The notes beneath the pieces are model-generated. The model was not told the origin of the DNA. It saw only the letters and a list, made by a program, of their open reading frames with translations, and searched no databases. From sequence record OR842557: 64,000 bases of DNA; one strand, given 5' to 3'. The stretch comes from Escherichia phage 04086. Of this stretch, positions 3,718 to 60,938 are shown piece by piece (the stretch's first letter is position 1; each line of letters opens with the position of its first letter). A program made the translations under genes and the position numbers.

Positions 3718-6027
<2,310 letters not shown>

Positions 6028-25285: not shown

Positions 25286-26109
25286 GTATATTTTCCTACA
25301 TCAATGAGGCTACTGAAACCACAAAGGGTTCCAAGCCCACCCGTTCAGAACAACAATGGATAACTTTAGGCGTTGAATATGCCAATGCCAAGGCTAAAGG
25401 TGTCTCGGCTAAGAAATTCGCTGAAGATAAAGGCATCAAGTATTCTAGTTTTACATCTGCGATGTCTCGATACTCGAGTCGAATTAAAACTGCTGTACAG
25501 GTTGAAAAACTTCAGAAGAAACCTGGCAATAAATTAACCAAAGCCGAACGTCAATTAATTTTGGTGAATAGTTTTAGAAAGAGTATTCGTGATAAGATTG
25601 CTAACGAAGGCGCCGCTGTAAACAATAAATCAGCTAAATGGTTTACAGAAACATTAAAGAAAGGAATTCGTGGACACCAGGTATCTAAACCGTCTCCTGG
25701 CAAGCTTTATGCTTATATCTATGATGCCAAACATAAGGATACCCTACCATACTGGGACAAATATCCTTTAATCATTTATCTTGGGTTAGGTAAGCATAAT
25801 TTAATGTATGGGCTGAACTTACACTATATCCCGCCTAAAGCACGCCAACAATTTCTGGAAGAATTGCTGAAGCAATACGCGAGTACGCCTACCATTACTA
25901 ACTCGACTAAATTAAAAATCGATTGGAGCAAGGTAAAAGGATTCGCCGGCGCAGACGTTATGATTAAGGCTTATATCCCTGGAAATATCAAGGGCCCTTT
26001 AGTAGAGATAAAACCTGCTGATTGGGCTAATGTAATAGGATTACCACTTCAACAATTTGTATCTAAAGGCAAGCGTTACTCAGCTCAGAAAGTTTGGAAG
26101 AAGGCATAA
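25273..26109 (+). CDS. 2: DNA end protector protein gp2
   Basis: 278 aa (T4 gp2 274 aa) in the conserved position after gene 4; an alternative start at ATG 25282 overlaps the gp4 stop. Confidence 0.75.
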
Positions 26110-26759
26110 TGAATTACCAGAAAATATATTCTTCATTAATTACACGTGCTCAAGGACGAGCACTATCCTGTTATACAGAATCTCATCATATTTTACCTAG
26201 ATGTATGGGTGGAGGCGATGAATCTACAAACTTAGTTGATTTAACTCCTGAAGAACATTATTTAGCACATCAACTATTAGTTAAAATGCATCCGGGACAT
26301 CCTGGTCTAACTTTTGCAGCTATGACAATGACTCAAGGCCCTCGTCGTTCTAATAAGCTTTACGGTTGGCTTAAACGTAAGCACTCTGAGAATATCACAG
26401 CAACCCAAACAGGAAAGGTTTATTATAATAATGGCAAGAAGTGTATTAAGCTGTTTCCGGGTGAACCGATTCCTGAAGGATTTGTAAAGGGACGAGGATG
26501 GAGTCCTACAAAAGGAACCACTCATGATAGGAATAATGGCCATTTTGCCAATAAAGAACTCCAAGCGGAGCTTTCTAAACGGAGATGGGATAAAGCCAGA
26601 AAGGAAACTTGTGAACAATTTGGTGTGGATACTATAGAAGAGGCCAAGGATATGGTTCGGGCATTTAAAGCTACATGCCACGAAAGATACTGGATAAAAC
26701 CAACTATAGCCAAATGGCCTTTTATGACACCAGTAAGACTACGTGAATTTATAAAATAA
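26109..26759 (+). CDS. HNH homing endonuclease (Mob-like)
   Basis: [10 protein letters not shown]...ESHHILPRCMGGGDESTNLVDLTPEEHYLAHQ is the phage HNH motif; ATG overlaps the gp2 stop (TAATG); sits between genes 2 and 3, which are adjacent in T4. Confidence 0.8.
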   Translation: MNYQKIYSSLITRAQGRALSCYTESHHILPRCMGGGDESTNLVDLTPEEHYLAHQLLVKMHPGHPGLTFAAMTMTQGPRRSNKLYGWLKRKHSENITATQTGKVYYNNGKKCIKLFPGEPIPEGFVKGRGWSPTKGTTHDRNNGHFANKELQAELSKRRWDKARKETCEQFGVDTIEEAKDMVRAFKATCHERYWIKPTIAKWPFMTPVRLREFIK

Positions 26760-30661: not shown

Positions 30662-30738
30662 GGCCCTGTAGCTCAATGGTTAGCAGCAGTCCCCTCATAA
30701 GGGAAAGGTTACCAGTTCAAATCTGGTCCGGGTCACCA
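30662..30738 (+). tRNA. tRNA with CAU anticodon (Met or Ile2)
   Basis: 77 nt; acceptor stem, T-arm accag-TTCAAAT-ctggt, anticodon loop cuCAUaa, encoded CCA; D-arm irregular and one acceptor mismatch. Confidence 0.6.
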
Positions 30739-30743
30739 ACTAT

Positions 30744-30818
30744 GTCCCGCTGGTGTAATGGATAGCATACGATCCTTCTAAGTTTGCGGTCCTGGTTCGA
30801 TCCCAGGGCGGGATACCA
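30744..30818 (+). tRNA. tRNA-Arg (anticodon UCU)
   Basis: 75 nt; 7-bp acceptor stem gtcccgc/gcgggat, anticodon stem-loop cgatc-cuUCUaa-gtttg, T-arm cctgg-TTCGATC-ccagg, encoded CCA; T4 also encodes a tRNA-Arg(UCU). Confidence 0.8.
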
Positions 30819-39652: not shown

Positions 39653-39885
39653 GCATTGCAATTTATATTAAATCTGAGTCATGTGATTCTTATCTGTATT
39701 CCTATGATACCGGAACATCAGAAGAGAAAATCAAAGAAGATTTAGAAAGCGATATGGATATGTTCTGTCCTATTGGTGACTATATGCTTCAAGTGTCTGA
39801 TAATGAAAGTCCATCATCAGAAAATAGACTTCAAATTATTATGCAAGATATTTTTAAACAATCATGGGAACGAGACGATGGGTAA
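39649..39885 (+). CDS. hypothetical acidic protein
   Basis: 78-aa ORF; stop overlaps the Nudix gene start. Confidence 0.45.
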   Translation: MSIAIYIKSESCDSYLYSYDTGTSEEKIKEDLESDMDMFCPIGDYMLQVSDNESPSSENRLQIIMQDIFKQSWERDDG

Positions 39886-40327
39886 GAAAGCTAAGGAATC
39901 ATCGGCAGGTATTTTGTTCATGACCGTTGATAAAGAACTGGTCATGGGTCGTGTAACAGGCTCTCGTAATCCAGAGAACATGCGTCATAAATGGGACATT
40001 CCTAAAGGTCATGTCGAACCAGGCGAAGAGCCTATTCAAGCGGCAATGCGCGAAACCGAAGAAGAGATTGGATTCACAGCATACGATCCTGCGTTCCTGA
40101 AAGACCTAGGTGAGTTCAAATATTCAAGCAATAAGAATCTACATCTGTTCTTATATACAGTGCCTGTGGAACACGAGCAGTTCAAGGATTGCAAATGTAC
40201 GGCTTACCATACGTTCCCTGATGGTCGCACGGTTCCTGAATTCGATGCGTTCGCTTTGATTAAACGTCCGCAATGGGAATATGTCATGGGCCCGTCGATG
40301 TATAAAGTTTTGAGTTCGCTCTTTTGA
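39878..40327 (+). CDS. nudE: Nudix hydrolase (NudE-like)
   Basis: Nudix box GHVEPGEEPIQAAMRETEEEIGF; start at ATG 39878 overlapping the upstream stop; position matches T4 e.1. Confidence 0.8.
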   Translation: MGKKAKESSAGILFMTVDKELVMGRVTGSRNPENMRHKWDIPKGHVEPGEEPIQAAMRETEEEIGFTAYDPAFLKDLGEFKYSSNKNLHLFLYTVPVEHEQFKDCKCTAYHTFPDGRTVPEFDAFALIKRPQWEYVMGPSMYKVLSSLF

Positions 40328-40335
40328 TATAAATA
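40328..40335 (+). promoter_or_regulatory. T4-type late promoter (TATAAATA) upstream of the HNH gene and lysozyme
   Basis: Exact plus-strand TATAAATA 5 nt upstream of the HNH ATG and about 730 nt upstream of e. Confidence 0.45.
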
Positions 40336-40340
40336 CCCGT

Positions 40341-41093
40341 ATGAATTATTTAAAAATATATGAATCTTTAATAGAATCCACTATTAAAAGACCTCACATA
40401 TGTGGGTACACCGAAAAACATCATATTTTACCGAAATCGATGGGTGGTAGTGATTCTATTGATAACTTAGTCGACCTCACCGCCCGAGAACATTTTATTG
40501 CACACCTATTATTGGCACGGATTTTTAAAAATCGCGAAATGTGGTCCGCTGTATATATGATGGCTTCAACAAGCTTGTCAAACTCTGACAGACATAGATG
40601 TTCATCGCATTTGTACGAATTATTGCGAGAACGTGCATCAATATATAATTCAGGTGAAAATTCTCCAAATTGGGGAATTAAACGTTCCGAAGAAACACGA
40701 TTAAAAATGTCAATTTCGAAAATGGGTTCCAAAAATCCAATGTATGGGATTCCTCAATGCTCGGAACACACCAACAAAATTAGTCTTGGTGTTATTGAAG
40801 CTTTTAAAAATCCGGAAATAAAAGAGCGACATAGGCAAAGTGTTTCCGGGGAACTCAATGGGTTTTATGGAAAGAACCATTCCGAAAAAAGTTTGGAAAA
40901 ACAACGGAATGCAAAACGGAAAGGATTTCCTTGGGACAATTATTCAGAATTGTACCCAATTTGGGTTTCATTAAATTGTCCCAAACATCCAACATTCACA
41001 AATGAACTTGTTAAATTGGGATATCCTAAAAAGAAACTTGTTCGAATAGTGGAAGAATTTAAAAATGAATATCTTCGAAATGTTACGCCTTGA
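40341..41093 (+). CDS. HNH homing endonuclease with NUMOD-like repeats
   Basis: [10 protein letters not shown]...[32 protein letters not shown] plus repeated SxxxxGxxNPMYG-type modules; the 3' end overlaps the lysozyme start by 29 nt. Confidence 0.8.
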
Positions 41094-41553
41094 TGAAGGC
41101 TGTAAATTGGACTTATATAAGGATACTGAGGGCTACTATACTATTGGCATTGGCCAATTGATTACTAAGAACCCTTCTAAAGATGTTGCTCGTGCTGAAC
41201 TTGATAAGCTTATGGGTCGAGTTTGTAATGGTCGTATTACTATGGCTGAAGCTGAACAACTCTTTAACCGATCGGTTGAAAATGCTCGTAGAGCTATTCT
41301 GCGTAATCCTAAATTGAAACCTGTTTATGATGTACTGGACGAAGTTCGTCGTTGTGCTTTAATTAACATGGTCTTCCAAATGGGTGAAGCAGGCGTAGCA
41401 GGGTTCACTAACTCTTTACGTATGCTCCAACAGAAACGTTGGAACGATGCGGCAGTTAACCTGGCTCAATCCCGTTGGTATAAACAAACTCCTAATCGTG
41501 CTAAGCGTGTTATCGCCACCTTTAAAACCGGCACATGGGCTGCTTATAGATAA
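41065..41553 (+). CDS. e: endolysin (T4 lysozyme e)
   Basis: 162 aa; [30 protein letters not shown] with Glu11/Asp20/Thr26 conserved; ...[31 protein letters not shown]...NRAKRVI matches T4 lysozyme. Confidence 0.95.
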
Positions 41554-41558
41554 AAGCA

Positions 41559-41587
41559 GTTTACATCTCCTGTAGTCATGATACTAT
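41559..41587 (+). promoter_or_regulatory. early promoter cassette (GTTTAC-17-TACTAT) with 11-bp inverted repeat that includes the downstream RBS
   Basis: atctcctgtag ... ctacaggagat arms flank the -10; the 3' arm contains the AGGAG RBS of denV. Confidence 0.6.
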
Positions 41588-41615
41588 AGACCTATCAACT
41601 ACAGGAGATTAAAAA

Positions 41616-42023
41616 ATGACTCGTATCAACCTTACCTTAGTATCTGAATTGGCTGACCAACACTTAATGGCTGAATACCGTGAACTCCCACGGATTTTTG
41701 GTGCGGTTCGCGAACGTATTGCCAAAGGGCAAGGCTTCTCTGATATCCCTAAAGACTTCCGCCTTGGTGCAGGGCACGTCAAGTTCTTTTATGTCAAAAT
41801 TGGATTTTTGTTCTTGCGACAAAATGCAATAATTGAGGAACTTCTGAAGCGTGGTTACCAGATTCAAAATACCCATGTAGACGTAGCGGATATTCCATTA
41901 CGGCTCATGAACGATTTCACCCCATCCGAAGCTGATATAGCTTTAAGCCAAGCTCGATTGGACGAAAAAATTGCACAACGCCCTACCTGGTACAAACATT
42001 ACGGCAAGGCTATTTACGCTTAA
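41616..42023 (+). CDS. denV: endonuclease V (pyrimidine dimer DNA glycosylase) DenV
   Basis: 135 aa; [26 protein letters not shown]...[25 protein letters not shown] matches T4 DenV. Confidence 0.95.
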
Positions 42024-44231: not shown

Positions 44232-44690
44232 ATGTCAGAAATTAATTCAGAAGTATTCATCCGCCGCAACAAATTACGTCGTCAGTTCGAAACCGAATTC
44301 CGCGAACTGAATGCGTCCATCAAAAAAGCCGCCATTAAGAGCGGAGTCCCAGCCTTCTTTATTAAGTACTCTAATCACTTGTTAGACCGTGCTATCCAAC
44401 GTGAAATCGACGAAAAATACGTTTTTGCTTTATTCAAGCAACTCCATAACCATGTTAAAGAAATTCATGAATTTTTAATCCAGGAACCTCTGCCTGATGT
44501 AGAATCCGAAATTGTCCCTGGTAAAGTGTATCGCCCATTGCGTCTCGAAATTACCGATAAAACCTTATGGTTGGGTATGACCGTAGACCGTAAACATCCT
44601 GATAAAGGATACTCGTTAAAATGTCGTATGGCATTTGTTAACTCTAAACGTTTAGAAGGTAAAACCAGCACGAAAGTAATTTACTTGTGA
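44232..44690 (+). CDS. hypothetical protein
   Basis: 152 aa from ATG 44232 behind the cassette RBS; the ORF-track start at 44073 is an extension through the promoter. Confidence 0.5.
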   Translation: MSEINSEVFIRRNKLRRQFETEFRELNASIKKAAIKSGVPAFFIKYSNHLLDRAIQREIDEKYVFALFKQLHNHVKEIHEFLIQEPLPDVESEIVPGKVYRPLRLEITDKTLWLGMTVDRKHPDKGYSLKCRMAFVNSKRLEGKTSTKVIYL

Positions 44691-44697
44691 GGACAGT

Positions 44698-45432
44698 ATG
44701 GAAACTATAAAATATCCATATGACTACTATAAAATAATAAATGACGCCTTATCTAGGGATACACCTAATGATGCCTATACAGAAAAGCACCATATAATAC
44801 CGAGTTGCGTTGGTGGTCCTGACACTCAAGACAATTTAGTTGAGCTTTATGCTGACGAACATTATTTGGCCCATATGTATCTAGCCAAAGCTAATCCAAA
44901 CCACTATGGGTTGAATTTTGCTTGGCTAAATATGAGCTCTACTTCAAATTCAAAACAAAGGTCTTATTTTGTAGATTCTGAAAATTATAAGTTGGCTAAA
45001 GAATCATTTTCAAAATTGCAATCTATTAATAAAATTTTATTTTTCTCTAAAAAGGAAAATAGGGCTGCTCATTCAATGGCTTTAATAAAGTATTTTGAAA
45101 AGGAAGGCTCTAAAGAACGGCTCAAAGAAATTTTAAATTCGCCAAAAGTAAAAGCTAAAATGTCTGAAAAACGGGTTAAGTATTTTGAAAATCCTGAAAA
45201 TAGACAAAAATTTAAAGCCATACAAAATTCTAAAGAAACTATAGAAAGGAAAAAAGCCTCTTTGCGGAAATCCCCTATATGGCATGAACCGATGTATTCA
45301 CAATTATATAAATTATGGGTAGATAATAATAAACTCAAGTGTGGAAGATTTAGTAAAATCGCAATTAAGAACGGCTTCCCTAATGTAGATTACCGAGGAC
45401 TTATTGATTATGATTTTTCTAAAAAAACTTAA
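44698..45432 (+). CDS. HNH homing endonuclease
   Basis: ...TEKHHIIPSCVGGPDTQDNLVELYADEHYLAHMYL; Lys-rich C-terminal putative DNA-binding region. Confidence 0.8.
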   Translation: METIKYPYDYYKIINDALSRDTPNDAYTEKHHIIPSCVGGPDTQDNLVELYADEHYLAHMYLAKANPNHYGLNFAWLNMSSTSNSKQRSYFVDSENYKLAKESFSKLQSINKILFFSKKENRAAHSMALIKYFEKEGSKERLKEILNSPKVKAKMSEKRVKYFENPENRQKFKAIQNSKETIERKKASLRKSPIWHEPMYSQLYKLWVDNNKLKCGRFSKIAIKNGFPNVDYRGLIDYDFSKKT

Positions 45433-59653: not shown

Positions 59654-59826
59654 AAACTGTATTAGTCTATACCGAAAAATTAAATGGCGGTAAGGTCTGG
59701 AAACTTCTTATCAAAGGAAGTCCAACTGACCAGTTTATGGCCACCTGTGTAGGATTATATACCCGTCCTACTAAAAAGATGATTCGTCAATTTAAACGTT
59801 TGCATCGCTCATTTTATAATGTTTAA
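59650..59826 (+). CDS. hypothetical small basic protein
   Basis: 58-aa ORF below the track cutoff; ATG overlaps the upstream stop. Confidence 0.35.
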   Translation: MKTVLVYTEKLNGGKVWKLLIKGSPTDQFMATCVGLYTRPTKKMIRQFKRLHRSFYNV

Positions 59827-59864
59827 TAAATACCTATATCTAATTATTATTAAAGGTATAGGTC

Positions 59865-60938
59865 ATGCAAGATTTCGGACATTGGGCGGTATTTGAAGAA
59901 ACCGATATTAAAAACCATATTGGATTTGTATACGTAATCACTTTTGAAGATGGCAAAAAATATGTAGGTGCTAAAAAGATTTGGAAACGAATTAAAGCTG
60001 CACCTTGCACATTTAAACGCGGCCCTAAAAAAGGATTTGAAGAATCTGATTGGAAAACCTATACCTCATCATCTAATGAACTAAACGCAATGATAGAAAA
60101 GGGTATAAGTCCTAAAGAGTACCTTATTGTAGGATGGTATCCTACTTGGGGTAAAACTCTTATGGCAGAAATGGAAATGCAATTAGCCAATGATGTTTTA
60201 CGAGACCCTATGTGGCTTAACAAGCAAATTGGCGGACATTTCAACCCTAACTGCTTTGACGATTTAACCGAAGATGATATTGCAAGATGGATGGAATTTG
60301 ATAAAGGGAACGAACATGTTTCCTGGCCTATGATGTACAAAATCGGTCAGAAAACCAAATATGTTAAACCTGACGAAGTTGGCAAGTATATTAAATCTGG
60401 GTGGCAATTTGGTCGTTCTAAAACAGAAAAACATTCTGTTACCTATAATTGCTCTAAATTTACTATATGGGACTATCAAGAAAATAAAGCAGTGGAAGTT
60501 CTAAATCAAAATGAGTTTGCTCGTAATAATGATTTAAGTAGCAACCATCTAACTAGACTACTTCAAGGAACTCTCGACCTTATTAAAGATCGCTGGGGAC
60601 TTCCACCAGATATTGCTCGTCAGCGTTATAAATTTCAGGACGTTTCTTCAGGAACAAAATTTTTATCTAATTCTGAGTTAGAAGAATTTTACGGTATGAC
60701 TCGCGGTCAGGCTAACAAAGCCGTTAAAGATGGAAGAGCCGTTAAATTGGTAGTCGAAAGCAAAGAAGACCACATTAAAAAACTTGGCTCTATCGAATTG
60801 GTAAAAACCGAAAAGACAAAAGTTACGTCTCAAGTAATGCTTAACAGTTTTAAAGATATAGTTAATCCTATGACCACTGCCGAAAAATCAGAAATGATTG
60901 AATGGTTGGAAAGTTATATAACTTATTTGAAATCTTAA
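59865..60938 (+). CDS. GIY-YIG homing endonuclease (Seg-like)
   Basis: N-terminal IGFVYVITFEDGKKYVGAKK is a GIY-(10)-YIG core; long basic C-terminal putative DNA-binding region. Confidence 0.75.
   Translation: MQDFGHWAVFEETDIKNHIGFVYVITFEDGKKYVGAKKIWKRIKAAPCTFKRGPKKGFEESDWKTYTSSSNELNAMIEKGISPKEYLIVGWYPTWGKTLMAEMEMQLANDVLRDPMWLNKQIGGHFNPNCFDDLTEDDIARWMEFDKGNEHVSWPMMYKIGQKTKYVKPDEVGKYIKSGWQFGRSKTEKHSVTYNCSKFTIWDYQENKAVEVLNQNEFARNNDLSSNHLTRLLQGTLDLIKDRWGLPPDIARQRYKFQDVSSGTKFLSNSELEEFYGMTRGQANKAVKDGRAVKLVVESKEDHIKKLGSIELVKTEKTKVTSQVMLNSFKDIVNPMTTAEKSEMIEWLESYITYLKS

Follow-up and report, generated by a model that had tools for sequence, protein, structure and literature searches.

A putative MobD-like homing endonuclease gene in the lysozyme leader of a Dhakavirus-like phage

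T4-type phages are well known to carry freestanding homing endonucleases, and the existence of another one is in itself unsurprising. In the window, by which we mean the whole stretch of 64,000 nucleotides of Escherichia phage 04086 (OR842557) that was analysed, a candidate gene of this type lies directly before the lysozyme gene e. An earlier note on this DNA had described an HNH open reading frame (ORF) that starts 5 nt downstream of an exact late promoter and whose last 29 nt overlap e, and had read it as a homing endonuclease that inserted itself into the leader of an essential gene and placed itself under late control. We wondered whether the gene is an insertion at all, what it has done to the leader of e, and whether the late promoter serves the endonuclease or the lysozyme.

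The nudE-e locus and the encoded protein

The window phage is a Dhakavirus-like T4 relative, and all features of the locus lie on the plus strand. The upstream flank is nudE (39878..40327), which encodes a Nudix hydrolase (Pfam NUDIX, 8e-15) and whose TGA stop codon (40325-40327) is followed with no gap by the late promoter box TATAAATA (40328-40335), an exact match. The spacer CCCGT (5 nt) and the start codon of the HNH gene complete the junction (40336..40343), with the ATG at 40341, just as the earlier note had it. The HNH gene itself (40341..41093) encodes 250 amino acids. Its tail overlaps the start of e by the 29 nt already described (41065..41093), while in the three other known copies of the gene, those of TH15, L016 and L017, the overlap is 32 nt. 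Lysozyme e (41065..41553, 162 aa; Pfam Phage_lysozyme, 7e-12) is intact. The HNH gene is freestanding, being situated between the nudE stop and the e start with the e ORF uninterrupted: an Rfam scan found no intron family in or near the region, and a tRNA scan returned nothing in or near nudE-HNH-e.

The identification of the ORF as an HNH endonuclease is borne out by profile searches and by its catalytic motif. Residues 1-246 match PHROG 655 (“homing endonuclease”) at 4.8e-56, and Pfam NUMOD3 is matched at 6e-12, above the cut-off, in three stretches that form a DNA-binding repeat region at about residues 108-190 (40662..40910). Pfam HNH models score 17-19.5 bits (1e-3), slightly under their curated cut-offs. 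The catalytic core (residues 25-55, 40413..40505) is recognisable from its invariant residues and its alignment to known HNH motifs: E25, H27, H28, P31, G36, L46, E50, H51 and H55 are invariant in 42 family members, and N42 is near-invariant, being conserved in at least 90% of the 42 homologues. A PDB sequence search returned weak local matches to HNH domains only (group II intron maturase, Cas8-HNH and McrA), with the motif aligning to the HNH of the maturase and of Cas8-HNH. The AlphaFold model of the 250-residue protein (pLDDT 86, pTM 0.50) displays an HNH core and, C-terminal to it, a mostly helical region, the low pTM meaning that the relative placement of these parts is uncertain. A Foldseek search with this model gave no significant match to a solved structure, the local similarity to HNH domains having E values of 0.6 or worse.

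The nearest named relative is T4 MobD, with 38.5% amino acid identity over 98% of the length. The window protein resembles the T4 Mob family (MobA-E, PHROG 655) in being a freestanding HNH protein of about 250 aa that can be aligned to MobD over its full length, in its MNYxKIY...HHI(L/I)P...GG.D...N...EH..AH core followed by NUMOD3 repeats, in being encoded in the same orientation as its neighbours and in its sporadic occurrence among T4-like phages. Beyond the modest identity, the difference from MobD is one of location, as MobD is found at nrdC.11/mobD.1 and the window gene at nudE/e; the activity of MobD is listed as “ND”, and its target is likewise undefined (PMC2988022). The MNYxKIY N-terminus is conserved family-wide, and the AUG at 40341 is therefore the true start. 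HNH homing endonucleases of the I-HmuI type carry an HNH module followed by extended DNA-binding repeats, and I-HmuI itself is intron-encoded. The window protein shares this layout of an HNH module and an extended C-terminal part, according to its model and its NUMOD3 repeats, whereas its gene is freestanding; no I-HmuI entry was among the matches of the PDB sequence search or the Foldseek search.

Distribution and mosaic flanks

The nudE/e site is empty in about 160 related genomes. Four sequences only carry the gene, namely the window, phage TH15 and two metagenomic contigs (L016 and L017), and these belong to two genera. TH15 was the one carrier among 81 phage records matching the window region and, when its own region was used, the one carrier among 84. 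Among 5.8 billion proteins there are two close clusters only, both encoded between nudE and e, and the IMG/VR viral contigs held no close copy (best match 40% identical over part of the length). A literature search found no account of an endonuclease at nudE/e. Insertions in the two genera share one point, and their junctions are precise. Empty sites (Bp7, PSD9, IME540) read promoter-hairpin-ATG with the late promoter at the same position, and those of Gaprivervirus have it at the same place as AATAAATA. Because relatives are empty in this manner and carriers are very few, the gene at nudE/e is an insertion. The comparison with insertion-less relatives that the earlier note proposed thus yielded empty sites, together with a candidate target block in e (see below), and the contrary case that it named, a gene ancestral and universally present at this position, is not borne out.

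The element and its surroundings have different histories. Between the window and TH15 the gene is 88% identical, with nudE at 71% and e beyond nt 90 also at 71%; between the window and L017, which has the same type of backbone, identity of the gene is just 73%. TH15 and L016 have genes that are 99.2% identical on flanks that are 91-92% identical, which indicates a recent transfer. Identity tables of the four copies accordingly give the element a tree that conflicts with that of the backbone.

The flanks are mosaic on both sides. The window nudE is 98.5% identical to that of Bp7 save for the last 130 nt, where the figure is 89.5%, so that the mosaic stretch relative to Dhakavirus relatives spans about 40200-40327. 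From nt 91 to its end, the window e is 96-97% identical to Dhakavirus e, and its first ~90 nt (41065..41154) form a Gaprivervirus-like tract with 71% identity to Bp7/PSD9 vs 83% to TH15/L016. TH15 compared with its near-twin VR7 displays the same pattern, with 90% identity over the first ~90 nt of e vs 97% in the rest. The first 90 nt of e therefore go with the element and not with the backbone, and we interpret them as a probable co-conversion tract. Inside this foreign tract, at e codons 22-26 (41128-41142, including W25Y), lies a block, GAAGG(T/C)TATTGGAC, which four empty genomes (Bp7, PSD9, VR7 and RZ), drawn from both genera, keep and which is altered in all four element-bearing sequences as well as in the element-less phage IME540. 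We regard the block as a candidate target or footprint of the enzyme. The W25Y and “CKLD” changes in e were considered as a strict marker of the element and rejected, as IME540 has both. The 5′ tract of e as a whole is not exclusive to carriers either, being present in IME540, and given this phage, part of the mosaic could pre-date the insertion in the window lineage.

These observations fit a homing event in which the enzyme would cut a co-infecting relative at its empty nudE/e site, the probable cut position being in the first ~80 nt of e, and repair from the element-bearing genome would copy the gene together with short flanking tracts. Cutting and repair with such a template would explain why ~130 nt of nudE and ~90 nt of e are mosaic. 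From the identities, the transfer appears to have crossed genera, from a Gaprivervirus-like to a Dhakavirus phage, with short co-conversion tracts. The locus is as such a well-resolved example of cross-genus transfer, and the candidate block in e makes the site of the enzyme directly testable.

A contrasting history, in which the gene was ancestral at nudE/e and was lost from most Dhakavirus and Gaprivervirus lineages, would account for the single insertion point shared by two genera. It would, however, need many independent and precise deletions, each recreating the promoter-hairpin-ATG leader that is also the arrangement of T4, and it sits badly with the conflict between gene and backbone trees, the foreign tracts on both sides of the gene and the dip in GC content across it (35-37% vs 42-47% in the flanks); we consider it very improbable indeed. 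The gene might also be a decaying or domesticated remnant, retained only because it carries the ribosome-binding site of lysozyme. The great rarity of the element (four sequences in very large databases), the sub-threshold Pfam HNH scores and the position of the initiation region of e inside the HNH ORF could be read this way, yet dN/dS is 0.09-0.13 across all pairs of gene copies and stays at about 0.1 over the whole length, HNH and NUMOD3 parts included, and not just at the 3′ end, the residues of the catalytic motif are all intact, and the near-identical TH15 and L016 copies on diverged backbones speak of recent transfer. This makes a remnant very unlikely. We favour, at a probability of roughly 85%, the reading of ORF 40341-41093 as a freestanding gene for an HNH homing endonuclease of the T4 Mob family, one that is intact and horizontally mobile and has mobD as its nearest named relative, with cleavage by its product being putative. 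It is a rare further member of a well-known class and not a new kind of system.

The leader of the lysozyme gene

Exact TATAAATA boxes occur 11 times in the window against 7.9 expected, which amounts to no overall enrichment. The box at 40328 is nonetheless not a chance occurrence, because it has the same place, abutting the nudE stop, in empty relatives and in T4. In T4 the promoter at this place is the documented late promoter of e (PMC3014915), and the A(-13) variant of the late box is the commonest one (PMC2988020). To judge from its position, the late promoter belongs to e and was not brought by the element. The reading of the earlier note needs correcting here, in that the promoter was already resident, as that of e, and occupies the same position in every empty site that we examined.

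The e leader of T4 is described as containing a hairpin which, on early transcripts, sequesters the ribosome-binding site (McPheeters et al. 1986, as summarised in PMC3014915), and the layout of the empty sites matches this published switch. Their hairpins have computed energies of -14.1 and -18.4 kcal/mol (z-scores -2.6 and -3.7), and the stems show compensatory changes between genera (CCTCCT/AGGAGG vs CCCCT/AGGGG). The window shares with T4 the same late promoter in the same place next to the nudE stop, and its empty relatives keep the hairpin as well. It differs from T4 in having neither hairpin nor Shine-Dalgarno sequence, and in that the promoter is now 737 nt from the e start. The alignment with empty sites shows that insertion deleted the roughly 25-nt leader of e, with both its hairpin and its Shine-Dalgarno sequence replaced by the gene. 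The earlier note had therefore correctly placed a homing-endonuclease insertion in the e leader, where the sites of relatives are empty and the gene is sporadic, but the picture of a gene merely wedged between promoter and lysozyme needs correcting, as the leader elements were replaced.

The new translation initiation region of e (41032..41064) is located inside the 3′ coding end of the HNH gene. A Shine-Dalgarno-like GGAAGA is found there at 41051-41056, 8 nt before the ATG and within the HNH ORF, and GTRGARGARTTTAAAAATG at this region is conserved in all four gene-bearing copies. Lysozyme now depends on this weak Shine-Dalgarno-like sequence in the 3′ end of the endonuclease gene. The sole recognisable late promoter for e is the one before the endonuclease, 737 nt upstream of the e start codon: a search for a second late promoter within the HNH ORF gave just TAAAAATA at 40351, at its 5′ end and with one mismatch, with no late-promoter-like site in the 3′ half of the gene, and a scan for MotA cores within the ORF returned none.

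A replacement regulatory hairpin at the new start of e was considered and rejected. Folds of single sequences have energies of -7.5 to -14.5 kcal/mol and z-scores of -0.6 to -1.5, which are weak and non-significant. The consensus of the four sequences forms an 8-bp UUCGAAUA/UAUUCGAA stem with a 23-nt loop at -4.1 kcal/mol, and this stem is AU-rich, shows no compensatory changes or covariation and has one mismatch in the window itself.

The locus can be seen as a clean natural experiment on the textbook translational switch of e, as both the hairpin and the Shine-Dalgarno sequence have been lost to a selfish gene. In this element-bearing arrangement e is still intact on four independent phage backbones, and near-isogenic empty relatives (Bp7, IME540 and VR7) are available for comparison. 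Because the element carries the only initiation region of e, its imprecise loss would cripple lysis, which would favour keeping it. A comparable situation is found at T4 segG/gene 32 and similar loci, where a signal for an essential downstream gene also lies inside the endonuclease ORF and favours retention (PMC2988022). The embedded signals there are promoters, whereas in the window the embedded signal is a ribosome-binding region and the promoter precedes the element.

Expression of the endonuclease

In Geiduschek numbering the first base of the late box is -13 (PMC2988020). The box then extends to -6, and after the 5-nt spacer late transcription is predicted to begin (+1) at 40341, which is the first base of the HNH start codon. 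The spacers of the four copies are 4-5 nt long (CCCGT, AAAT, CACAT and CCCAT), each giving a T-A step at the predicted start, and in all four there is no Shine-Dalgarno or purine-rich element between the nudE stop and the HNH ATG. The HNH start has no hairpin that would sequester a ribosome-binding site, the segment 40300-40380 folding at -4.1 kcal/mol (z +1.4). Six other exact boxes in the window are 21-29 nt 5′ of a start codon, which is preceded by a GAGG-type purine-rich run. With its AUG on the predicted +1 and lacking a Shine-Dalgarno sequence, the HNH gene would be read from a leaderless late mRNA, or else the late transcript would miss the start codon; late control of the endonuclease is not established by this arrangement. 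Its expression is probably low, given that no Shine-Dalgarno sequence precedes the AUG and that late transcription is predicted to begin on it.

Among known systems, the locus recalls the hairpin-regulated I-TevI, I-TevII, I-TevIII, T4 segB and Aeh1 mobE, in which a late promoter is likewise found directly 5′ of the endonuclease ORF, itself part of a transcription unit that is expressed earlier (PMC2988022). In these cases a Shine-Dalgarno sequence is present ~8 nt upstream together with a stable hairpin that late transcripts lack, and the window HNH gene has neither. The classical hairpin arrangement is displayed by the SegE-like gene at 59865 and not by the HNH gene at 40341.

The enzyme could thus be made from leaderless late mRNA, or by reinitiation 8-13 nt past the nudE stop on earlier read-through RNA. 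Translation might be confined to the late phase, from a leaderless mRNA that begins with the HNH start codon: in read-through RNA of the early or middle phase this AUG would be internal, have no Shine-Dalgarno sequence and be ignored, and late in infection it would be 5′-terminal and read by the leaderless pathway, giving the late-only logic of the hairpin systems without RNA structure. The placement of +1 on 40341, the retention in all four copies of a 4-5-nt spacer of varying sequence with a T-A step and no Shine-Dalgarno sequence, the family-wide N-terminus that fixes the AUG and the unstructured start all agree with this, as does the restriction of other homing endonucleases of T4 phages to late translation (PMC2988022). 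The transcription start is a prediction, however, and a shift of 1-2 nt would drop the AUG from the transcript; the literature search brought up no leaderless late mRNA for a T4-type phage; and the conserved spacing could reflect plain inheritance and not selection, if the four copies share one ancestral insertion. We hold this reading tentatively.

A competing and also tentative reading treats the endonuclease gene as a promoter-less cassette, translated only from pre-late polycistronic nudE-HNH-e RNA, by ribosomes that finish nudE and start anew 13 nt after its stop codon, with the late promoter serving e alone by way of a leader of ~720 nt that is translated poorly or not at all. The nudE stop and the HNH AUG are separated by just 8-13 nt in the four copies, a TAATG overlap visibly couples the HNH gene at 26109 to gene 2, and a candidate middle promoter 5′ of nudE (39776..39804, plus strand; MotA-box-like ATGCTTCA with GATAAT), a weak, pattern-only hit from the consensus scan and TGCTT search, could yield a nudE-HNH-e read-through transcript. 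Reinitiation without a Shine-Dalgarno sequence is usually inefficient, though, and this route leaves the AUG at the predicted +1 in all four copies unexplained. Seven freestanding endonucleases of T4 are promoter-less cassettes on upstream transcripts, yet T4 endonucleases are reported to be biased towards late or middle expression, to which an early nuclease would be an exception (PMC2988022). Between the two routes we lean slightly towards the leaderless one.

In its full form, the leaderless route would be a structure-free temporal switch, with an HNH AUG that lacks a Shine-Dalgarno sequence being silent when internal and translatable only as the 5′-terminal AUG of a leaderless mRNA from the late promoter of e, a possibility raised by the start codon on the predicted late start. 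We consider such a switch possible but doubtful, and to our knowledge neither a leaderless late mRNA of a T4-type phage nor control of a homing endonuclease by promoter position has been documented. If it exists, the element would have swapped the hairpin switch of lysozyme for its own promoter-position switch and left lysozyme dependent on a ribosome-binding site carried inside a selfish gene; leaderless integration of a selfish gene into the phage programme is absent from the 2010 review of T4 mobile elements (PMC2988022).

The other short-spacer case in the window, a box followed by 4 nt and an in-frame ATG inside terminase gene 17 (4220-4227, minus strand), was considered as a leaderless precedent and is treated as chance. 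Of four aligned relatives only Dhakavirus VR5 retains it, where it reads as Y-K-Y-L-M codons, and the T4-type, Klebsiella and Acinetobacter relatives lack it.

The three further endonuclease genes that the earlier note listed are indeed present, and all four in the window are sporadic among close relatives. A second Mob-like HNH gene (26109..26759, plus strand; PHROG 655, 9e-56) separates gene 2, encoding the DNA end protector, from gene 3; its start overlaps the gene 2 stop, and it is present in 10 of 60 related records. The third (44698..45432, plus strand; PHROG 655, 3e-36), in the regB/vs region, has its own GAGGA Shine-Dalgarno sequence and was found in 4/97 related records. The GIY-YIG gene (59865..60938, plus strand) is SegE-like (Pfam SegE_GIY-YIG, 1e-33; PHROG 7363, 1e-179) and is present in 9/88 related records. 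Upstream of it are AATAAATA (59825-59832) and a hairpin that sequesters the ribosome-binding site, with a folding energy of -10.3 kcal/mol with the 5′ arm and -1.0 without it.

Insertion of an HNH endonuclease gene between nudE and e

The HNH endonuclease ORF (250 codons, 40341-41093, + strand, ATG at 40341) lies between nudE, which encodes a Nudix hydrolase, and e, which encodes a T4-type lysozyme and is followed by denV. The TGA stop of nudE (40325-40327, + strand) abuts an exact late box, TATAAATA (40328-40335, + strand), which a 5-nt spacer (CCCGT) separates from the HNH start codon, and the ORF overlaps the beginning of e (start at 41065) by 29 nt. This is the layout described in an earlier note, both for the late promoter 5 nt ahead of the ORF and for the overlap. 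The observation is real and the core interpretation of that note, a homing-endonuclease insertion, is right: the site is empty in 80 of 81 related phage records, the gene tree is discordant and the flanks are mosaic.

The region is 94-95% identical to the Dhakavirus phages Bp7, WG01, QL01, PSD9 and IME540. Among the 81 phage records matching window 39700-41700, the only one with the HNH ORF is TH15, an unannotated Gaprivervirus that carries it at the same site (90% protein identity). Searches with the TH15 region returned 84 records, with the gene in TH15 itself only. A collection of 5.8 billion proteins held two close clusters only (90% and 76% identity), both encoded on short metagenomic contigs, L016 and L017, with a Nudix gene on one side and a lysozyme gene on the other. 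No close copy was found in IMG/VR.

Relatives without the insertion, the comparison proposed in the earlier note, have a promoter, hairpin and ATG in succession in both genera. The empty junction reads TTTTGA-TATAAATA-CCTCCTATACTCAGGAGGTATT-ATG in Bp7, PSD9 and IME540 and GGA-TAATAAATA-CCCCTATATAAGGGGGTATT-ATG in the Gaprivervirus phages VR7 and RZ; in T4, a stem of this kind is accompanied by two late boxes. The predicted leader hairpins (-14.1 and -18.4 kcal/mol, z scores of -2.6 and -3.7) bury the Shine-Dalgarno sequence, and the stem differences between genera are compensatory. Among natural variants of the T4 late box, the form found at e in Gaprivervirus, AATAAATA, is the most frequent (PMC2988020). 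In T4, early read-through RNA forms the e hairpin and is poorly translated, late RNA starts within the hairpin and is translated well, and the same design is reported for related phages (PMC3014915). Judged by sequence and predicted folding, the empty-site leader is this documented gene e switch. Because the same box and hairpin are present in empty sites, the late promoter at 40328 belongs to e as its resident promoter and did not arrive with the endonuclease gene. The earlier reading stands as to insertion into the e leader; late control of the endonuclease gene, its other point, is possible.

Identity and mobility of the endonuclease gene

The ORF matches Pfam NUMOD3 (6e-12) and, over nearly its full length, PHROG 655 'homing endonuclease' (4.8e-56); three Pfam HNH models fall slightly below their cut-offs. 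In an alignment of 42 family members, E25, H27, H28, P31, G36, L46, E50, H51 and H55 are invariant and N42 nearly so, and the HNH core aligns to solved HNH domains. The product of 40341-41093 is thus a predicted HNH endonuclease. Its best match in the phage protein collection after TH15 is T4 MobD (38.5%), the nearest named relative and itself uncharacterised (PMC2988022). Rather than representing a new kind of system, the locus adds a new, rare member to the T4 Mob family, at an insertion site not described before; no account of an endonuclease at nudE/e was found in the literature searched.

The endonuclease gene and its surroundings have different relationships. Window and Bp7, which lacks the gene, are 98.5% identical in nudE (last 130 nt excluded) and 96% in e beyond nt 90. 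Window and TH15 share 88% identity in the endonuclease gene and 71% in both nudE and e beyond nt 90; for L017, which also has a Dhakavirus backbone, the values are 73% in the endonuclease gene, 94% in nudE and 96% in e beyond nt 90. TH15, with a backbone like that of VR7, and L016, with a nudE like that of RZ, are 99.2% identical in the endonuclease gene, 91% in nudE and 92% in e beyond nt 90. Taken with the backbone types, these identities make the endonuclease gene tree discordant with the backbone tree and imply at least one very recent transfer of the element.

The flanks are altered next to the insertion. The first 90 nt of window e are 71% identical to Bp7 versus 83% to TH15, and identity is back to at least 92% Dhakavirus-type by ~41155; the last 130 nt of nudE are only 89.5% identical to Bp7. 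TH15 and its near-twin VR7 are 90% identical in the first 90 nt of e and 97% in the remainder. GC content is 35-37% across the endonuclease gene and 42-47% in the flanks. The dN/dS of 0.09-0.13, for every pair and each third of the protein, indicates purifying selection. Homing is known to proceed with co-conversion of flanks (PMC2988022), and together these sequence signatures are the standard ones for an active freestanding homing endonuclease gene with such co-conversion.

IME540 (MT150133.1; 800-1010 compared with window 41083-41160) lacks the element and keeps the e leader hairpin. The first six codons of its e are Dhakavirus-type and codons 7-32 are the window-type foreign tract (92.7% over 96 nt, seen in no other of the 579 records that matched), so the tract is not strictly linked to the element. 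Either the window lineage carried a foreign e allele before the element came, or IME540 may be a footprint left by loss of the element or by conversion that the element drove; its e is possibly a cleavage-resistant allele. The block GAAGG(T/C)TATTGGAC (e codons 22-26, window 41128-41142) is identical in empty genomes of both genera, which are only ~70% identical overall. IME540 and each of the four sequences with the element differ from it at 3-5 positions, with W25Y among the changes. Across these nine sequences, the block is a candidate recognition or cleavage region.

Consequences for lysozyme and expression of the endonuclease

All four element-bearing sequences (window, TH15, L016 and L017) have kept the late box and lost the hairpin and Shine-Dalgarno sequence, with the endonuclease ORF occupying the gap to the e ATG. 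The start of e is now preceded by GTGGAAGAATTTAAAA, the last endonuclease codons (…VEEFKNE…), where the only Shine-Dalgarno-like motif, a weak GGAAGA, lies 8 nt ahead of the ATG in every copy. Predicted structure at this new start is weak and statistically unremarkable, and no compensatory changes were found there among the four copies.

Several consequences can be inferred. As no other late-promoter-like or MotA-type sites were found in the 3' half of the ORF, late transcription of e would have to pass through the endonuclease gene. With the hairpin that limits early e translation gone, early or middle read-through RNA might yield some lysozyme; T4 lysozyme does not lyse cells without holin, so some early lysozyme is probably tolerated. 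Ribosomes translating the endonuclease would cross the e start, stopping 29 nt into e, and could block that start or else make it accessible. Since the only initiation region of e lies inside the element, imprecise deletion would damage lysis, a retention effect analogous to that of promoters lying within segG and further endonuclease genes of T4 (PMC2988022).

In the numbering of a published review, the first late-box base is -13 (PMC2988020), which places the box at -13 to -6 and, with the 5-nt spacer, makes the A of the endonuclease AUG (40341) the predicted +1. The spacers of the four copies are CCCGT, AAAT, CACAT and CCCAT; a T-A step marks the predicted start in every copy, and all four lack a Shine-Dalgarno sequence before the endonuclease AUG. 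Conservation of the N-terminus MNYxKIY throughout the family shows this AUG to be the true start. Six other exact late boxes of the window are followed, 21-29 nt downstream, by a start codon that has a GAGG-type purine-rich run ahead of it.

The endonuclease could be made from a leaderless late mRNA or, with similar weight, by reinitiation 8-13 nt past the nudE stop on earlier read-through RNA. A candidate middle promoter lies ~75 nt upstream of nudE (39776-39804), a pattern match comprising a MotA-box-like ATGCTTCA and GATAAT, which could give a nudE-HNH-e transcript. Expression should be low by either route, which fits the tight control reported for genes of this kind (PMC2988022). If the late start were shifted by 1-2 bases, the late RNA would serve as a message for e alone, with a long leader. 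Because Shine-Dalgarno sequence and hairpin are both missing, the gene does not belong to the 'late promoter plus RBS hairpin' class. The locus is of moderate interest, chiefly because the classic gene e switch has here been deleted naturally and because a leaderless late message is possible.

A similarly short spacing occurs elsewhere: an exact TATAAATA (4220-4227, minus strand) is followed after 4 nt by an in-frame ATG inside the terminase large subunit gene 17 (3721-5556). Of four aligned relatives, only Dhakavirus VR5 retains it (Y-K-Y-L-M codons), while T4-type, Klebsiella and Acinetobacter relatives lack it; given this poor conservation, it is probably due to chance.

Other endonuclease genes and neighbouring features

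A Mob-like HNH gene at 26109-26759 (10 of 60 related records) separates gene 2 (DNA end protector) from gene 3 (tail completion protein), as the earlier note had located it. Another lies in the regB/vs region (44698-45432; 4 of 97 records) and a SegE-like gene at 59865-60938 (9 of 88); a motif scan of the window found no further Mob-type HNH ORFs. The differing distribution of these three genes among otherwise 92-98% identical genomes supports the proposal of ongoing intron-less homing.

The start of the 26109 gene overlaps the gene 2 stop (TAATG, 26105-26111) with AAGG upstream, and the 44698 gene is served by a GAGGA Shine-Dalgarno sequence that overlaps the stop codon ahead of it (44680-44700). 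Beside these ordinary signals, the start at 40341 stands apart in having no Shine-Dalgarno sequence. The region ahead of the SegE-like gene (59825-59870) shows a classical late-promoter/hairpin switch, as described for segB, mobE and I-TevI: downstream of a variant late box, AATAAATA, the hairpin ACCUAUA...UAUAGGU buries the Shine-Dalgarno sequence, with a fold of -10.3 kcal/mol that weakens to -1.0 when the 5' arm is left out.

Immediately downstream of e, the e/denV junction is another recombination-prone site. The two genes are directly adjacent in the window (41553-41616) and Bp7; ipIII lies between them in PSD9 and, by record annotations, in JS98 and JS10. In IME540 and L017 a 132-aa ORF occupies this place, and e has a different C-terminus (…KAYENL versus …AAYR). 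Adjacent genes for tRNA-Met (CAT) and tRNA-Arg (TCT) lie at 30662-30818 on the + strand.
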